Part shown: in pieces, positions 10,217 to 63,429 of the stretch
Layout of the letters: each line of letters begins with the position of its first letter
Position numbering within the stretch: position 1 is the stretch's first letter
Source: Vicinamibacteria bacterium
GTDB lineage: Bacteria; Acidobacteriota; Vicinamibacteria; Marinacidobacterales; Marinacidobacteraceae
NCBI GenBank assembly: GCA_963555995.3
Contig: OY821641.1
Coordinates: forward strand, 2,912,001-2,976,000
Reading direction: 5' to 3'
DNA length: 64,000 nt
Notes under the pieces: generated by a model
The model's input: only the letters and a program-made list of their open reading frames with translations
What the model was told of the DNA's origin: nothing
Database searches by the model: none
Translations under genes and position numbers: made by a program

Positions 10217-10615
10217 ATGAAGACCGTGTTGGCCCGCCACCGGGAATCGGCCTACGCGCTGCTGCGCATCGTCGTGGGCTTCTCGTTCCTCTGTCACGGC
10301 GTGGTGGCGGTCTGGTTCCTGTTCGGCGAAGGGACCCCCTACTCCCCGGCGTGGCTCTACAACACCGCCGGGATCGTCGAGTTCGTGACCGGCGCGCTGG
10401 TCCTCGTCGGCTACCGGACCCGGATCGCGGCGTTCCTCGCGTCCGGCCAGATGGCGGTCGCCTACTTCTATCGCCATCAGCCCGACGGGCTGCTCCCGAT
10501 CCAGAACGACGGCGAACTGGCGGCGCTCTACTGCTTCCTGTTCCTCTTCATCGCCGCCGCGGGTTCCGGCAAGTGGAGCATCGAGTCCTGCTGCCCGCCG
10601 GGCGGAAGGGCCTGA
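10217..10615 (+). CDS. DoxX family membrane protein
   Basis: ALLRIVVG..HG, GxxE..G, TRIAAFLASGQMAVAYF, NDGELAALYCF. Confidence 0.85.
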   Translation: MKTVLARHRESAYALLRIVVGFSFLCHGVVAVWFLFGEGTPYSPAWLYNTAGIVEFVTGALVLVGYRTRIAAFLASGQMAVAYFYRHQPDGLLPIQNDGELAALYCFLFLFIAAAGSGKWSIESCCPPGGRA

Positions 10616-10666
10616 TCGGCCGAAGCCGAGCTTCTTTCGTGACAGCATATACGCTATCATTCGTGA

Positions 10667-11101
10667 GTGAGGGTCGTAGTGGACACGAATGTCCTCGTCG
10701 CTGCCGTGTCCAGCCCGGACGGCGCCAGCCGCGAGGTGCTTCGGCGTTGCCTCCGTGGCGAGTACATCCCGCTACTGGGGGAGGCGCTCTTTCTGGAGTA
10801 CGAGGCCGTTCTTCGACGGAAGGAGCCGTTCGCCAAATCAATCGCGTCGCCTGAAGAGCGCCACACCCTGTGGGCAGCCATGGCAAATCGCTGCGAATGG
10901 GTCCGCGTTCACTACCTTTGGCGTCCCAACTTGCCGGACGAGGGCGACAACCACATCATGGAACTGGCGCTGGCCGGTGGCGCAGAGGCAATCGTCACTC
11001 ACAACACAGGAGACTTCCGGGGCGGCGACCTGCGTTTTCCCCAAGTGCGGGTCCTGACCCCCGCCAACTTGCTCACGGAGACCTCAAAATGGCGACAATG
11101 A
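10667..11101 (+). CDS. PIN-domain putative toxin
   Basis: VVDTNVLV, DEGDNHIMELA, IVTHNTGDF acidic residues. Confidence 0.9.
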   Translation: MRVVVDTNVLVAAVSSPDGASREVLRRCLRGEYIPLLGEALFLEYEAVLRRKEPFAKSIASPEERHTLWAAMANRCEWVRVHYLWRPNLPDEGDNHIMELALAGGAEAIVTHNTGDFRGGDLRFPQVRVLTPANLLTETSKWRQ

Positions 11102-11346
11102 CCATTCGTATTCCGGACGACACCCACGCACGTATCAAGCGCCTGGCGCGCCAACGCGGAATGAGCGTGAACCGCCTCATCGAGGAATTGAGCGTGATTG
11201 CCGTAACCCAGCACGACGCCGAGGCGCGTTTCCGGGCTCTCGCAGCACGCGGATCGGCGCGGGAGGGGCTCGCGCTTCTTGAGAAGCTCGACCGCGCGTT
11301 CGGCGCCGAGCGCTCCGCAGGCCATTCCGAGGAAAGGCCGGCATGA
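11089..11346 (+). CDS. Ribbon-helix-helix antitoxin-like protein
   Basis: MATMTIRIPDDTHARIKRLARQRGMSVNRLIEEL RHH pattern; overlaps the PIN gene. Confidence 0.8.
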   Translation: MATMTIRIPDDTHARIKRLARQRGMSVNRLIEELSVIAVTQHDAEARFRALAARGSAREGLALLEKLDRAFGAERSAGHSEERPA

Positions 11347-11943: not shown

Positions 11944-12293
11944 TAGTGACAGGAGCTCCCCGCCAAGAGATGGCGTTAGTGACAGGAGCTCCGGCCAACC
12001 GATCGCTCTAGTGACAGGAGCTCGACGGGGCAAACCGGGCGAAAGTCGTCCGAAAAACCGGATTTCGGGTCGCCTGGCCGGATTAGTGACAGGAGCTCCA
12101 CCGCCGAGACGGCGTTAGTGACAGGAGCTCGGCCGCCACCGGCGTGATTAGTGACGGTAGCTCCACCACCGAGACCGCGCTAGTGACAGGAGCTCACCGC
12201 GGAATTGCCGGATTAGTGACAGGAGCTGGACCTCCCGGCGCCGGTATAGTCGCAGGAGCTCGGCGTAACCGAAGCGAATAGTGACAGGAGCTC
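11944..12293. repeat. Array of ten 15-bp direct repeats TAGTGACAGGAGCTC with 17-18-bp variable spacers
   Basis: Copies start at 11944, 11977, 12009, 12084, 12116, 12149, 12181, 12214, 12247, 12279 (period 32-33, one 75-bp step); copies 6, 8 and 9 carry 1-2 mismatches. Confidence 0.95.
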
Positions 12294-12326: not shown

Positions 12327-13367
12327 GTGGCCATCCTGGACCTGCGGCAATCGCCCCCTTCGGAAGCTCCCGGCGGAGACACCGCCACCACCGGAGAGGT
12401 CGAATCCGTTCGCGAAATGATCGAGTCCGGGGAGCCTCCCGGTCTCGACCGCATCCGGCGGTTCGTGCTGAAGCCGCGCCCGCGGCTCTGGAGATTCGGC
12501 GTCGGGATCTGGCTCTGGATGGTGCGGATCGCCGAGTGGTTCGTGCGCTTTTTCCGGTGGACTGGAGACCTGGCCGTGCGGCTCGCCCGCGCCGCGAGGC
12601 TCGCCGCGTTCCTCGGGCGGCGGACCCAGAACCTCGGGGCGCGGGTCGGCGCCGTCGGCCGGAACTGGAGTTCGGCGGAAGGCCGGCTCGGAGCGGCGGG
12701 TGGGTGGCTGGAGCGATGCGGCGCGCGTCTCGTCGGGGGAGGCGCGAACCTCGCCCAGGTCGGGGACGGCGTGACCGAACTGACGACCCGGGCGGCCCGG
12801 TTCCTGGCCGGCGCTCCCGACGCCGGCAGCGGAAAGCCGCACCCGGCGAACGCCCCTCCGACGGCGACGCCGCCCCCGCCCCGGTCGAGGCGAGGCAGGC
12901 GGCGGGCCACGGACGTCGCGGCGGGTCCGCAGCCGTCCCCCGCGGAGCGCGGCCCGCTTCCGGCCGCCAATGTGGAGGACTCCCCGAAGACCGTCCCGGC
13001 GCCCCCGGTTGTCACGAGCGCGCCGCAGCCCCCGCCCGGCGACCCCCGTCCGTCGGCCGCCGCCGCCGATCCGCCGCCCCTGCCCGACGACCTGCCGTTC
13101 TACCTCCGGAACCAGATCGAACACCTCGGCCAGCGACCGCGCCGGGAAACGGTCGAGAAGCTCATTCTGGCGTTGACCGAAGATCGGGGCTGGCTGGAGC
13201 CGGTCCAGCTCGCGGCGTGGCTCGGCATGACGGTGCCGTATCTGTCGCGGCGGTATCTCGGTCCCATGACGGAGGCCGGCCAACTCGTGCGCCGCTATCC
13301 GAACCGGCCCACGCACCCGGATCAGGCCTATCGTTCGGCGCTCGGCGGCGCGGCCCCGCACCCGTGA
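12327..13367 (+). CDS. Hypothetical protein: amphipathic/hydrophobic N-terminus, Pro-rich linker, C-terminal winged HTH
   Basis: Trp-rich segment LWRFGVGIWLWMVRIAEWFVRFFRW; C-terminal LAAWLGMTVPYLSRRYLGPMTEAGQLVRRYPNRPTHPDQAY resembles the wHTH tail of Fic-like/AlbA-RecG-type proteins. Confidence 0.7.
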   Translation: MAILDLRQSPPSEAPGGDTATTGEVESVREMIESGEPPGLDRIRRFVLKPRPRLWRFGVGIWLWMVRIAEWFVRFFRWTGDLAVRLARAARLAAFLGRRTQNLGARVGAVGRNWSSAEGRLGAAGGWLERCGARLVGGGANLAQVGDGVTELTTRAARFLAGAPDAGSGKPHPANAPPTATPPPPRSRRGRRRATDVAAGPQPSPAERGPLPAANVEDSPKTVPAPPVVTSAPQPPPGDPRPSAAAADPPPLPDDLPFYLRNQIEHLGQRPRRETVEKLILALTEDRGWLEPVQLAAWLGMTVPYLSRRYLGPMTEAGQLVRRYPNRPTHPDQAYRSALGGAAPHP

Positions 13368-13427: not shown

Positions 13428-13724
13428 ATGGCGATCAACCTGACCCACCGGCCCGATCTGGAACACCGGATCGAACGGCTGGCCTCGCGGTTCGGAATGA
13501 ACGGGCGGGGGCGCAAGACGGCGGTGATCGAGCGGGCGCTCACGGCACTCGAGGCGCAGAACGCGCCGATGTCTCCGGAAGAGATACAGGCGTCGCTCGC
13601 TCAATTCACGCATGGCGACCAGATCGCCGCGGAACTTGCGGACGATCCTGAACTCGATCACAGCAAGCCCCTGTCCCAAGCGCTTCAGGACGTCCTGTAC
13701 GACGAATACGGCCTACCCAAGTGA
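13428..13724 (+). CDS. VapB-like antitoxin
   Basis: MAINL..PDLE...RLA...KTAVIERAL and C-terminal LYDEYGLPK; GTGA overlap with the PIN gene. Confidence 0.75.
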   Translation: MAINLTHRPDLEHRIERLASRFGMNGRGRKTAVIERALTALEAQNAPMSPEEIQASLAQFTHGDQIAAELADDPELDHSKPLSQALQDVLYDEYGLPK

Positions 13725-14116
13725 TCGTCCTGGACACGTCTGCCGTGGTGGCGATCGTGCGGGAGGAACCGGAGCGGGATCGTTTCCGGGAGGAGATAGA
13801 GCGTGCCGGCGTGGTCCTGGTGTCCGCTGGAAGTTGCATCGAGCTCGCCGCCGTCGCGGGCCGCTCGGACAGGCTCCGGACAGATGTCGCCAGGTTCCTC
13901 CAACAGCCGTTCGTCAGGATCGAACCGGTCACGATGGCCCAGGCCGAGATGGCGGCGGACGCATTCGAGGCGTGGGGCAAGGGCCACCATCCGGCGGGCC
14001 TGAACCTCGGGGACATGTTCGCCTATCTGCTGGCGCGGGAACGGGACCTCCCGCTGCTGTTCAAGGGAAACGACTTCGCCCGGACGGACGTAAGGAACGC
14101 ACTCGAAGACGAGTGA
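13721..14116 (+). CDS. vapC: VapC PIN-domain toxin
   Basis: IVLDTSAVVAI, GKGHHPAGLNLGD, PLLFKGNDF. Confidence 0.9.
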   Translation: MIVLDTSAVVAIVREEPERDRFREEIERAGVVLVSAGSCIELAAVAGRSDRLRTDVARFLQQPFVRIEPVTMAQAEMAADAFEAWGKGHHPAGLNLGDMFAYLLARERDLPLLFKGNDFARTDVRNALEDE

Positions 14117-56042: not shown

Positions 56043-56167
56043 GCCGCCGCCGCGTGTGCACCTCTCGGAGATGTGTGCCGATTGTATTGTTCGCTATACA
56101 ATCGGGCAACAACAGGGCCGCTCGATAGAACGGTTCACCCCCTCGCGGTTCCGGCGCCACTCCTCCC

Positions 56168-57367
56168 ATGTCTCGTCCTCCCGGTTTCATTCCTCGCGCG
56201 ATCACGCCCGCCCTGCGCCGTCTGCGCGCCGGGTTCCCGGTCGTCTGTCTGACGGGCGCGCGCCAGGTCGGGAAGACGACCCTCGTGCGGGCGGAGTTCC
56301 CCGAACTCCCGTACGTCTCCCTGGAGCCTCCCGACGTTCGCGCCGAGGCGGTGGAAGATCCCCGCAAGTTCCTCGCCCGCTGGCCGCGGGGAGCCATTCT
56401 GGACGAGGTGCAACGCGCCCCCGACCTCCTGTCCTATCTCCAGCCGCTCGTGGACGAGCGTCCCGATGAGCTCCGTTTCGTGCTCACCGGCTCCCAGGAC
56501 TTCGCGGTGTTTCAGCGGGTGAGCCAGTCGCTCGCCGGCCGAGTGCTGTCGCTCGAGCTCCCCGCATTCACCTATCGCGAGGCATTCGGCGACCGCCGGC
56601 CGCCGCTCGACGTCGTCCTGACCTCCGGCATGTTCCCCCCGGTGCACGCGCGCGGCGCGGACTTCGGCGCCTGGCTCGATTCGTATGTGGACACGTTCCT
56701 GGAGCGCGATGTTCGCCAAGTGACCCTGGTGCGGGACCTGCTGCGCTTCCGCAAGTTCCTTCAACTCTGCGCCGGGCGGACCGGACAGGTGCTCAACGTC
56801 ACCCGCTTGGCGAACGACGCCGATGTGACCCGCGTGACGGTGATGGAATGGATGGCCATTCTCGAATCCCACTATGTGACCTGGCGCCTCCCACCGGCGG
56901 TCGGGAGCGTCCGCAAGCGGACCATCCGGGCGTCCAAGCTGTATTTCCATGACGCCGGCCTCGCCGCCCGGCTCCTGGGAATCACCGGGCCGGAAATGCT
57001 CGCGCTCCACCCGCTGCGTGGAGCCATCTTCGAGACCTGGGTGGTGTCGGAAATACGCAAGCATTTCCGGAACCGCGGGATCCGGGCGCCGCTCGGATTC
57101 TGGGAGCCCCAGGGCGGCCGGGGGGTGGATCTCGTCATCGGGCGCGAGCCCGTCTGGAGCGCGGTGGAGATCAAGACCTCAGTCGGGTACCGCCCGGAAC
57201 TGGTCCGGGGTCTCCGTCACTGGGCGGAAGTCTTCGAAGCTCCCGAGGCCCGCGCCGTTCTCGTTCACGGCGCCGAGGAGAGCGAACCCCACCGCTCGCC
57301 CCCGACCGCGAGCTTCCGCGACATCGAATCCGTTGTAGAACGAATCCTGGGCGCAACCCCCGGGTAG
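56168..57367 (+). CDS. AAA_14 ATPase with DUF4143
   Basis: GARQVGKTT, DEVQ, LTGS, SLAGR, KLYFHDAG, G.IFET, VD...EIK. Confidence 0.92.
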   Translation: MSRPPGFIPRAITPALRRLRAGFPVVCLTGARQVGKTTLVRAEFPELPYVSLEPPDVRAEAVEDPRKFLARWPRGAILDEVQRAPDLLSYLQPLVDERPDELRFVLTGSQDFAVFQRVSQSLAGRVLSLELPAFTYREAFGDRRPPLDVVLTSGMFPPVHARGADFGAWLDSYVDTFLERDVRQVTLVRDLLRFRKFLQLCAGRTGQVLNVTRLANDADVTRVTVMEWMAILESHYVTWRLPPAVGSVRKRTIRASKLYFHDAGLAARLLGITGPEMLALHPLRGAIFETWVVSEIRKHFRNRGIRAPLGFWEPQGGRGVDLVIGREPVWSAVEIKTSVGYRPELVRGLRHWAEVFEAPEARAVLVHGAEESEPHRSPPTASFRDIESVVERILGATPG

Positions 57368-57476
57368 CACCGTTCATCGGGACGTCACGACCGGGAGCGC
57401 CGGTCTTCAGACCGGCATCGCGGCCGCCGGCCGCGAAACTCCCTGGTCACTCGCCCGACATCGACTGCCCGACAGA

Positions 57477-57847
57477 TTGACCGGAGCTTTGACCGGAGCT
57501 CCCTTCGTTTGACCGGAGCTTCGGTCAATTGACCAGAGCTTTGACCATTGCTCCGGCCGTTTGACCGGAGCTTTGACCATTGCTCGACCGGGTTTGACGG
57601 CAGTCGTCGGGAGAATCCGGGCAATAGCTCCGAAATCGGTCACGACCGGCCCGAAAGACCGAATTCAGGCCGAAAAAGACCGATTTCGGCCGAAAGAACC
57701 GATTCCAGCGGCAACCGCTGGATCATCCGAATACGGCGGGGCAACGCCGGAATTCAGGGGAATTGACCCCAGCTCCGGTCAATTGACCCATGCTCTTGAC
57801 CGGAGCTCCCATCAATTGACCGGAGCTTTGACCGGAGCTCCGGTCAA
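57477..57847. repeat. Bipartite array of ~12 TTGACCGGAGCT 12-mers with a 20-bp-repeat central spacer
   Basis: Copies at 57477, 57489, 57509, 57529, 57541, 57561, 57573 and 57763, 57783, 57796, 57816, 57828; some extend into palindromes ending GGTCAA. Confidence 0.92.
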
Positions 57848-58007
57848 TTTCTGGTCGGAGGTGGAGAAGACCGCACCCCGCGCCTGAAGGTGGCGCGTAC
57901 GGCTTGGAACGCCGGTCTCCAGACCGGCACGCGCGCCGCTCCGCGGCGCGCACGTCGCAACTCCACCCGCCCACATGGCTGTACTACCGGGACCGCCAGT
58001 CTTCAGG

Positions 58008-58355
58008 TCAGGCCGGCGCCGCCCGCCCGCTGATGCCCTGGTTGGACTCCTGCTTCTCGGGGCAGCGGTCGGCGATGGCGGTTTTCACGGCTTCGAGGTG
58101 CTCTTGAGCCTCGCGGACCCTCTTGGCGTGACGCCACTCGTCGTCTCCCTGGTTGGAGCGAGCGTGAACGTCACCCATGAGGTCGCGGGTGTCCAGGTCC
58201 GTGGTATCGCCTCCGAGCGTGCGGACCGTCCGCTCCGCGTCCTCCAGCTCGGCCTCCAACGCTTCGCAGGTCATCTCGGGAGGGAACGCCGGCGGCTTCG
58301 CGCAGCCGCCAACGAGAGCAACGGCGGGAACGAGCAGGAGGGTGAGTCTGGTCAT
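58008..58355 (-). CDS. Small hypothetical lipoprotein
   Basis: RBS GGAGGA, signal peptide ending VGGC, two further Cys. Confidence 0.7.
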   Translation of the reverse strand: MTRLTLLLVPAVALVGGCAKPPAFPPEMTCEALEAELEDAERTVRTLGGDTTDLDTRDLMGDVHARSNQGDDEWRHAKRVREAQEHLEAVKTAIADRCPEKQESNQGISGRAAPA

Positions 58356-61359: not shown

Positions 61360-61764
61360 GGAGAACCTCCTCACGAGGCGTGGTTCGAAGGGCCGAGTCC
61401 GGGCAGCCAGCCTGGTGGCGCCGGAGGGAATGCGCGTTGGTTGGACGCCGCCGCCCCGTGAGGGCGCGTCCGCGCGCAATCGGCCGAAAAGGATGGAAAG
61501 TCAATTCGAGAGAAAGTATCACGCAAGGGTCATTCCCTGCCAGTACACAGTTCAGGGCCGGAATGCAAGAGCGATAACGTCCATTTTTTCAAGGGTTTAT
61601 GAAATGGACCGCCAGCGTCGCCACCGCGTCCCGGTTCGGGTTTCCGGTTTTTCGAACCGCAAGTCCAACGAGCCGTAGTTTCGTGGCGATCGTCCTCGTT
61701 CCGCCGGCCGGGGCGGCGCGGTGTCCGGAACCTGCGGCGGTCCGGGGGTCCGGACCGCCGCGCC

Positions 61765-62601
61765 GGTTTGGAACGCCGGCTTCAGCCGGCACAGCCTGCC
61801 GCAGGCGGGCAGCGGGACGGATCTCATCTGCCGGGATGGCGCGAAGGCCCGGAACGCTAGCCACTCGTTCCTTCATGGCGCCTTGCCGGCCCACGCGCCA
61901 TGCCGGCAGGAGCCTTACGTCGTTCCGCTGCGCTCTGCGCAGCGGGTGCCGGCTGAAGCCGGCGTTCCAAGCCGTTTCGCCGTTCTCATGGCCGGCGGGG
62001 TGCGCCGGAAGACACGCGCATGGACGTTGCTGTGAAAATGCGACTCCCGTGGGTCCGTCACCAGCCGTGATGGCGCCGCCGGCTTGGAGCGCCGGCTTCA
62101 GCCGGCACAGCCCGCCGCAGGCGGGCGGCGGGACGGATCTCATCTGCCGGGATGGCGTGAAGGCCCGGAACGCTGGCCACTCGTTCCTTCATGGCGCCTT
62201 GCCGGCCCACGCGCCATGCCGGCAGGAGCCTTACGTCGTTCCGCTGCGCTCTGCGCAGCGGGTGCCGGCTGAAGCCGGCGTTCCAAGCCGTTTCGCCGTT
62301 CTCATGGCCGGCGGGGTGCGCCGGAAGACACGCGCATGGACGTTGCTGTGAAAATGCGACTCCCGTGGGTCCGTCACCAGCCGTGATGGCGCCGCCGGCT
62401 TGGAGCGCCGGCTTCAGCCGGCACAGCCCGCCGCAGGCGGGCGGCGGGACGGATCTCATCTGCCGGGATGGCGCGAAGGCCCGGAACGCTGGCCACTCGT
62501 TCCTTCATGGCGCCTTGCCGGCCCACGCGCCATGCCGGCAGGAGCCTTACGTCGTTCCGCTGCGCTCCGCGCAGCGGGTGCCGGCTGAAGCCGGCGCTCC
62601 A
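61765..62601. repeat. Tandem array of a 316-bp REPIN-containing unit (~2.6 copies)
   Basis: Equivalent positions at 61770, 62086, 62402; near-identical copies. Confidence 0.95.
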
Positions 62602-62690
62602 GGCCCTTCTGCCGTCTTCATGACCGGCGGGGTGCGCGGGAGGAGACCCGCATGGACGTTTCTGCCGGTGGCGGTTCCCGGCCGGCAGTG

Positions 62691-63011: not shown

Positions 63012-63353
63012 TCAGGACGCTGTTCTGTCCTCGACGTTGTTGGGCCGAGCGTCGGGATCACTCACTCCGTCGGCGTCGGGGGCGCGGCCCATCAGGATGT
63101 TCTCGATCCGCACCAGGCGATTCTCGATGCGGTTCTCTATCTGGCCCATGCGGTTTTCGATCTCGCCCATGCGGTTCTCGATCTGGACGAAGCGGCTGTT
63201 CATCGTGTTCTCAAGAGTGTCCACGCGGGACGCGAGGCCGTTCACGGTGCCCTTCAACTCACCGACATCGGAGACGCCCTTGGTGAGAAGCCCGAGCACG
63301 AAAACGAGCAGGACCGCCCCACCGATCCTGGTCCAGAGCGTGAGCATCTTCAT
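63012..63353 (-). CDS. Small membrane-anchored coiled-coil protein
   Basis: N-terminal TM segment, heptad repeats IENRMGE/IENRMGQ/IENR; RBS GGAGG. Confidence 0.7.
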   Translation of the reverse strand: MKMLTLWTRIGGAVLLVFVLGLLTKGVSDVGELKGTVNGLASRVDTLENTMNSRFVQIENRMGEIENRMGQIENRIENRLVRIENILMGRAPDADGVSDPDARPNNVEDRTAS

Positions 63354-63429
63354 GTTCCCGAGTGACCTCCCTACGGGAACGAACACTACCGCATCCGGCC
63401 GACTTCCGCCGTGCGCAGCGCGCGGCCCG

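Follow-up and report, generated by a model that had tools for sequence, protein, structure and literature searches.

What kind of element is the array of short repeated sites at positions 57477-57847 of the stretch of DNA analysed here, and which protein would read it? The stretch, referred to below as the window, comprises 64,000 nucleotides of a Vicinamibacteria genome (G000), at positions 2,912,001-2,976,000 of contig C1. In a first-pass annotation of the window, this array and a first array at 11944..12292 had been assigned to one family of protein-binding elements with a common core motif and a common bipartite layout, perhaps recognized by the same or by paralogous winged-helix (wHTH) proteins. 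In the literature covered, which lay mostly outside subscription journals, neither such a family nor a reading of its repeats as sites was found.

In this study, the array was compared with the rest of the genome and with related genomes. Sequence comparison identifies it as a copy, with no gene of its own, of the 370-bp element that accompanies a wHTH paralog encoded 1.15 Mb away, at C1:1,819,743-1,820,627.

Structure and surroundings of the element

Forward copies of a 12-bp site were located by a loose-motif scan at 57477, 57489, 57509, 57529, 57541, 57561 and 57573, and in a second cluster at 57763, 57783, 57796, 57816 and 57828, with steps of 12, 13 and 20 bp; the earlier description of about 12 copies in clusters of seven and five, at steps of 12-13 and 20 bp, is therefore borne out by both the sequence and the motif scan. 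The exact 12-mer TTGACCGGAGCT accounts for seven of the 12 forward copies and the remaining five vary in three central bases, while a degenerate site lies in phase at 57594, 21 bp past 57573. Three inverted copies (57517-57528, 57771-57782 and 57836-57847) extend forward copies into palindromes, as had been noted, and only that at 57828-57847 is perfect. The element is read on the minus strand as cluster A (57763..57847; five forward and two inverted sites), which corresponds to the gene-proximal cluster of gene-linked copies, a spacer (57606..57762) and cluster B (57477..57605; seven forward sites, one inverted site and the degenerate site). The 11-mer TGAC(A/C)GGAGCT, described as common to both arrays, is indeed present above chance, with 20 matches (at most one mismatch) in the window compared with 2.32 ± 1.42 in 100 dinucleotide shuffles of the window, none of which reached 20.

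The array is not an assembly artefact, because contigs from four sequencing runs and two studies cover it. Three of the four runs, all from one study, gave a contig spanning 57473-57844 with zero differences, and the fourth, from a separate study, gave one spanning 57563-57845 with 12 differences (96% alike); the material of run X5 is listed as a sponge metagenome. Where contig joints skip the array, they connect one REP with another and have short sides, and such joints were not accepted as excision. At the gathering score, an Rfam search of the whole window returned rRNA and tRNA only, with no structured RNA family at the array.

Two convergent genes, separated by 641 bp, enclose the element: an AAA_14-DUF4143 gene (56168..57367, plus strand) and a small lipoprotein-like gene (58008..58355, minus strand), the latter conserved in relatives, both end towards it. 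Two REP palindromes in the same orientation (57387..57417 and 57899..57929, plus strand), which are 84% alike and may have aided movement of the element, flank it. These REPs and the AAA_14-DUF4143 gene had been reported correctly at first pass; as far as tested, they look incidental and not part of the system, because homologous elements mostly lack both (homologous arrays in genomes G013, G009 and G004 are mostly without REPs) and because exact matches to six REP core patterns occur at 910 places in the genome. Among 30 relatives, no close ortholog of the AAA_14-DUF4143 gene was found (best 64-69%, partial). Furthermore, the array is absent from the orthologous site in all 11 regions listed, out of 14 relatives with such a region, and in seven of these 11 the lipoprotein gene directly adjoins a hydratase-like gene from which, in the window, it is about 3.4 kb distant; the AAA gene and the array are thus recent arrivals.

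Several other features of the window were recorded. An operator-like inverted repeat, with arms of 8 bp separated by 8 bp, lies at 56080-56103, 5' of the AAA_14-DUF4143 gene. Tandems built from REPs occur at 61761-62664 (about three copies of a 316-bp unit) and at 41087-41250 (two copies of 84 bp, beside a 5S rRNA gene). On the minus strand, at 63012-63386, a small ORF that contains a 21-bp repeat encodes a membrane-anchored coiled coil, and similar ORFs flank several arrays elsewhere.

Six paralogs and their arrays

A search of the genome returned six genes whose products begin with a basic, Trp-rich and predicted amphipathic region, continue through a linker rich in proline and end in a wHTH of the Fic-like_C type; each of the six adjoins its own phased array with its own motif. 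The array lies directly upstream of the start with a 32/33-bp period in four paralogs, and downstream in bipartite form in two. That of the C1:1,819,743 paralog is bipartite and begins 40 bp past the stop codon. The sites beside this gene differ from the commonest site of the 57477-57847 element in three central bases, and that central triplet matches the motif of another clade, the gene of which is absent from G000.

The two loci are connected by their spacers. A model built from 15 spacers of other genomes only, with the sites masked, matched the element at 57581-57756 on the minus strand (nhmmer, E 1.1e-17) and the gene-linked spacer at C1:1,819,743 (E 2.6e-25), the next match in G000 having an E value of 0.11; the spacer of the element is 70% identical to that of locus L060 and 61% identical to the gene-linked copy. 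The spacer is about 200 bp in length, with an AT content of 41%, and the distance between clusters is mostly 217-227 bp (233-265 bp in several copies). A signal in the 10-11 bp band exceeds shuffles (p<0.05) in 18 of 19 spacers, with mean power peaking at 9.75-10.0 bp, the period of the A/T dinucleotides here, and none of 3000 AT-matched genome windows was as periodic as the spacer of the element, which is predicted to wrap or bend. A period shorter than 10.5 bp has been interpreted as a sign that the DNA wraps around protein as a solenoid (PMC4132750). A decayed 10-bp tandem repeat would give the same periodicity.

Only 28 phased arrays were found in the 3.8 Mb genome by a de novo scan; about 20 arrays lack an adjacent gene, and about 26 are counted together with the six that are gene-linked. 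Of 126 site steps, 101 deviate by no more than 1.5 bp from a multiple of 10.5. The site class of the 57477-57847 element forms nine clusters genome-wide, of which eight have a single orientation and only the present one contains inverted copies. The first-pass annotation had proposed mapping the motif in the genome and its relatives against origin, terminus and neighbouring genes. This placed arrays beside wHTH paralogs and revealed neither origin bias, terminus bias nor replichore polarity, both orientations being present on both arms; arrays at 1.637 and 1.704 Mb lie beside the skew maximum at 1.62 Mb, and dnaA lies at 3.47 Mb. The neighbours are mixed, including restriction, AAA, Fic, PIN and IS genes and also carB, mpl and transporters, as surveyed in two scans covering 55 and 50 of 100 called genes.

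Two further kinds of locus were observed. At C1:679,164-683,384, eleven tandem 300-bp REP units each carry a pair of sites of the 57477-57847 type and are followed by a full cluster and then by an array of another paralog's class, forming a composite locus with BIME-like site amplification. Arrays at C1:114,452-114,790, 3,228,769-3,228,865 and 3,656,132-3,656,225, with steps of 31-33 or 21 bp, match none of the six paralog classes and are possibly relics of lost paralogs.

Relation to the first array

The first array of the window (11944..12292, plus strand) consists of nine sites with a 32/33-bp period and lies directly 5' of another of the six paralogs (12327..13367, plus strand), which encodes an amphipathic region, a linker and a wHTH and matches PF21247 weakly; pairs of genes resembling PIN-type toxin-antitoxin systems were read from the sequence on both sides of this locus, at 10600-11346 and 13428-14100. 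The claim of a common bipartite layout does not hold, as the gap in the first array is a single 75-bp step and its match to the spacer model has an E value of 3.5. The claim of one element family with the same or paralogous readers stands in part: the two arrays consist of sites of one family of elements that is tied to paralogous wHTH genes, and recognition by the same protein is not supported. Different readers are indicated because the motifs dissociate in both directions across genomes. Genome G014 carries the paralog and motif of the first array and lacks the C1:1,819,743 paralog, the motif of which has only one match there, while G008 and G009 contain the C1:1,819,743 paralog and its motif, with no match to the motif of the first array. 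Overall, the latter motif was present in one of five genomes tested (G014) and was absent from G008, G009 and G004.

Distribution in related genomes

The full-length protein family was found in 17 of 18 other genomes of the taxonomic family f1 and in none of 12 genomes of two sister families; in a sample of 301 genomes of the class, it occurred in 20 of 27 f1 genomes, with three C-terminal-only matches among the other 273. An array accompanies 55 of 65 distinct family domains according to an automatic 8-mer rule. The ten array-less domains comprise three at contig ends, three fragments, one with its array displaced by an insertion and three intact genes with none seen.

The wHTH of the C1:1,819,743 paralog is present at 78% identity or better in six f1 genomes and was not found in 13 of 19. 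Motif matches number 64, 25, 14, 17, 24 and 26 in the six genomes bearing the paralog, and 0-2 in 12 of the 13 without it, with 11 in G004; a reversed-motif control gave 1-8 matches, and the tallies are descriptive, as the genomes compared are kin. Outside f1, the loose motif has 2-20 matches per genome, with scattered singles among the matches listed; a genome of another family, G030, has 20 loose-motif matches and two with the reversed control. The motif mostly tracks the recognition helix, identical or near-identical helices mostly having a common motif. Loci L012 and L074 have near-identical scaffolds and differ in both recognition helix and motif; L070 is a clear exception to the rule, and L017 and L071 fit it loosely.

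Because each of the six paralogs has its own motif beside it, because motif and paralog occur together and because the spacers are homologous, the C1:1,819,743 paralog probably binds the 57477-57847 element.

The winged-helix protein and its relatives

An AlphaFold model computed with 47 sequence rows contains long helices at residues 21-147 (pLDDT 57-87), a low-confidence linker and a wHTH at 213-292 (pLDDT >90), with a pTM of 0.38. The best structural matches of residues 213-292 are wHTH domains (Z 9.1-9.7, rmsd 1.6-2.3, 62-67 aligned residues), including many regulators. PF21247 matches 41 of 47 members at E 0.05 or better (best 3.3e-7), and none of the six G000 paralogs (18-23.6 bits) passes its curated cut-off of 27 bits. 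MerR matched one of the 47 members and DUF536 none at E 0.05; there was no ParB family among their Pfam matches, and the model has no room for a ParB-type CTPase. PDB entry 4rgl was the top match by both sequence and Foldseek, weakly in each case, nothing reaching E 0.001 in Foldseek with the AlphaFold model, and the ESM Atlas returned Fic-like_C clusters only (0.77-0.78), a lead at most. Residues 18-56 have a median net charge of +8, six aromatic residues and a hydrophobic moment of 0.66 across 47 members; the predicted amphipathic signal exceeds shuffles in only 19 of the 47, and no transmembrane segment was found in 45. The hairpin at 67-150 resembles chemoreceptors, ESCRT-III, Vipp1 and BAR domains (Z 8-10), likenesses too generic for use.

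Among 1.84 billion representatives, about 45 matched at 1e-30 or better, and further matches mostly covered the C-terminal 90 residues. Of 22 such C-terminal matches scanned, nine contained HATPase_c_4 and six SLFN_AlbA_2, and many had 7-amino-acid repeats before the wHTH. In ten of the 11 Schlafen-ATPase-type genes with a located wHTH (15 fetched), these repeats are also DNA motifs phased at 21-22 bp; they mostly end like the sites of the present family, and gene copies with frameshifts retain them at 22-bp steps that no longer keep the reading frame. Phased, frame-independent repeats inside Schlafen-ATPase genes suggest that the pairing of wHTH and site is old and was re-used here with a new N-terminus, and it is plausible that these genes were the source of the wHTH and site type of the family. 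The short linker repeats of Schlafen-ATPase and Fic genes may accordingly be read, testably, as DNA sites for their own wHTH and not as mere flexible linkers. The available part of the 'Schlatpase' preprint notes a C-terminal HTH and in that part does not mention repeats or DNA sites (bioRxiv 10.64898/2026.05.29.728809). In G000, a Schlafen-HATPase_c_4 gene (L132:5874-7166, C1:915.4-916.7 kb) adjoins the paralog at 913-914 kb, just past its array, and a separate motif with four copies in 22-23-bp phase lies upstream of the Schlafen-ATPase gene of L109.

Discussion

We consider that there is about an even chance (roughly 0.5) that the 57477-57847 element is a paralog-specific docking element that tethers DNA to the membrane, by analogy with RocS, Par and Noc. 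The wHTH protein of C1:1,819,743-1,820,627 would bind the gene-less element in trans, with one wHTH per site and the bound domains aligned on one face of the DNA (steps of 12, 20-22 and 31-33 bp), and the spacer would wrap as a solenoid and bring the two site clusters together. Many weak amphipathic helices concentrated on the array could then bind the membrane jointly, as in Noc and RocS, pinning the locus to the inner membrane face through the predicted amphipathic N-terminus. On this basis, six paralogs and about 26 arrays would constitute separately addressed anchor points round the chromosome. Gene-less copies were likely formed by copying of a gene-plus-array cassette followed by erosion of the gene, or by movement of the array along with REPs.

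The tether reading is least secure with regard to the membrane step and to an advantage for the host. It is supported by the truncation of arrays in G004, where the gene is missing (two of three arrays are truncated and the third is whole, with two sites left at the syntenic position of the gene), and by gene-less arrays kept between species, as at L053 and L054, which occupy one site in two species and are 75% alike, with the sites kept and the linkers drifting. It is weakened by the amphipathic signal in only 19 of 47 members, by the exceptions to the helix-to-motif rule, by the three intact genes without arrays and because the paralog is dispensable; a transposase interrupts this gene in G001 and a frameshift disrupts it in G013, and the arrays persist in both. 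In addition, convergent gaps also tolerate insertions, and the lack of a replichore, origin or terminus pattern argues in the same direction.

The main rival is that of a selfish or near-neutral cassette, in which the protein binds its own array for the inheritance, uptake or packaging of the cassette, and gene-less arrays are relics or hitch-hikers, produced by gene erosion or REP-linked duplication, with no host function. We regard this as somewhat unlikely. In its favour, at one syntenic site, a broken gene with an array in G008, a 34-codon remnant with an array in G002 and an array only in G009 form an erosion series; paralogs are patchy, some copies are broken and specificities diverge; restriction, AAA, Fic, PIN or IS genes often adjoin arrays; and the 57477-57847 segment is itself missing at the matching site in the relatives described above. 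Sites are also amplified in pairs in the 300-bp REP tandem, and for five of the nine clusters of the class the nearest REP core is no more than 65 bp away. However, at least one paralog is retained in all 15 genomes of the genus, gene-less arrays hold their sites, phasing and spacer length across species and are truncated in G004 after gene loss, the cassette contains no recombinase or transposase, and no gene remnant was found within 1.4 kb of the 57477-57847 element.

Transcriptional control is unlikely. The proteins would in that case be membrane-sequestered regulators, upstream arrays would be autoregulatory operators and distant arrays would either titrate it or serve as transcriptional roadblocks or terminators. 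The position of the array directly 5' of the start in four of six paralogs, the many regulators among the structural neighbours and the intragenic sites in Schlafen-ATPase genes, which would fit autorepression, are in keeping with such a role, as is the perfect palindrome at 57828-57847, which is followed by a T run and has a terminator-like score (three found compared with 0.8 expected). This hairpin is not conserved, since inverted copies occur in only one of the nine clusters of the class, and the array of the C1:1,819,743-type paralog lies 3' of the gene at all loci seen. The 57477-57847 element has no sigma-70-like promoter and lies between convergent genes, as do 11 of 20 gene-less arrays compared with 115 of 598 other gaps of at least 300 bp (Fisher p 0.0005, based on our own gene calls); most gene-less arrays are not operators, because they are enriched in such gaps.

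A dormant replication origin, or a recombination accessory site of an integrated element of the iteron or cer/psi type, is very improbable. Phased direct repeats, steps of 20-22 bp and a spacer that is about 200 bp long and looks wrapped do resemble iterons and accessory sequences, but no Rep, recombinase or plasmid genes occur among the neighbours scanned, the spacer is merely 41% AT and provides no AT-rich unwinding element of the iteron type, and the protein comprises one wHTH and a predicted amphipathic N-terminus, with about 26 copies of the array scattered on the chromosome.

That the array is a decayed remnant of a gene with 4- or 7-amino-acid linker repeats, of the Schlafen-ATPase or Fic-like kind, the objection raised at first pass against protein binding, is hardly credible: the 7-residue linker repeats of related wHTH proteins are phased DNA sites of the same general type, but all six ORFs overlapping the array have a negative codon score (genome median +0.28 per codon), only 62 of 126 site steps are divisible by 3, steps of 8, 13 and 20 break the frame at 57477-57847 and homologous elements begin 40 bp past a stop codon.

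Tethers that connect DNA to the membrane at specific sequences are known in small number, and the ones compared here are single proteins with one site. If the tether reading is correct, the present family would be a diversified multi-paralog tether with about 55 natural helix-to-site pairs, on which a wHTH recognition code and a use as orthogonal DNA tags could readily be tested. A more far-reaching proposal, tentative and rather doubtful, is that in one bacterial family the self-binding wHTH tail of Schlafen-ATPase defence genes became a multi-channel address system. In such a system, several membrane-anchored paralogs, each recognizing its own word by means of a small code in the recognition helix, would wrap dozens of dedicated arrays and pin them to the membrane, and would thereby either organize the chromosome or transfer tagged loci by way of membrane vesicles.

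Comparison with known systems

The closest relatives of the wHTH by both sequence and structure are found in Schlafen-ATPases ('Schlatpase', SLFN_AlbA_2 with HATPase_c_4) and Fic proteins (PF21247). In those, the sites lie within the gene and the protein carries a nuclease/ATPase or Fic enzyme, whereas here the sites lie outside the gene and predicted amphipathic helices replace the enzyme. REP/BIME elements with RAYT are represented by the REPs that flank the 57477-57847 element and several sister arrays, the array itself not being a REP; the genome contains one Y1 transposase. Unlike KOPS- or matS-type signals, the arrays have neither replichore polarity nor confinement to the terminus. Plasmid iterons and parC-type centromeres consist of two groups of helically phased direct repeats beside the gene of the binding protein, and their specificity diverges between paralogs; the present arrays differ in being chromosomal, in having many copies and in lacking a Rep or a partition NTPase nearby.

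Repeated cognate sites are also a feature of pSK1 Par and of RacA (ram sites), beside the gene in the case of Par, as are the repeated sites here. Together with RocS of Streptococcus pneumoniae, these are single-protein wHTH tethers between DNA and membrane that lack an NTPase; a single polypeptide carries the wHTH, an extended helical part and an amphipathic helix (PMC11500499). The present family agrees in these points, its amphipathic helix being a prediction. The domain order is reversed here, with a C-terminal wHTH that is of the Fic-like_C and not the MerR type, and DUF536 is lacking; furthermore, there are 1-12 matches per genome, each paralog having its own motif, and bipartite arrays with a conserved periodic spacer, as well as gene-less arrays throughout the chromosome. 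Noc of Bacillus subtilis, with its NBS sites, is a tether of similar logic and has in common an N-terminal amphipathic helix, predicted in the present family, and scattered chromosomal sites, along with weak membrane binding strengthened by assembly, which for the present family is inferred (PMC4331003). In contrast to Noc, no ParB/CTPase domain is present here, and the sites are direct-repeat arrays, also located near the terminus, where NBS sites are scarce, and not single palindromes. On the features tested, the family thus falls outside Noc, RocS/Par, KOPS/matS and iteron origins, while it would, by analogy, work like the first two.
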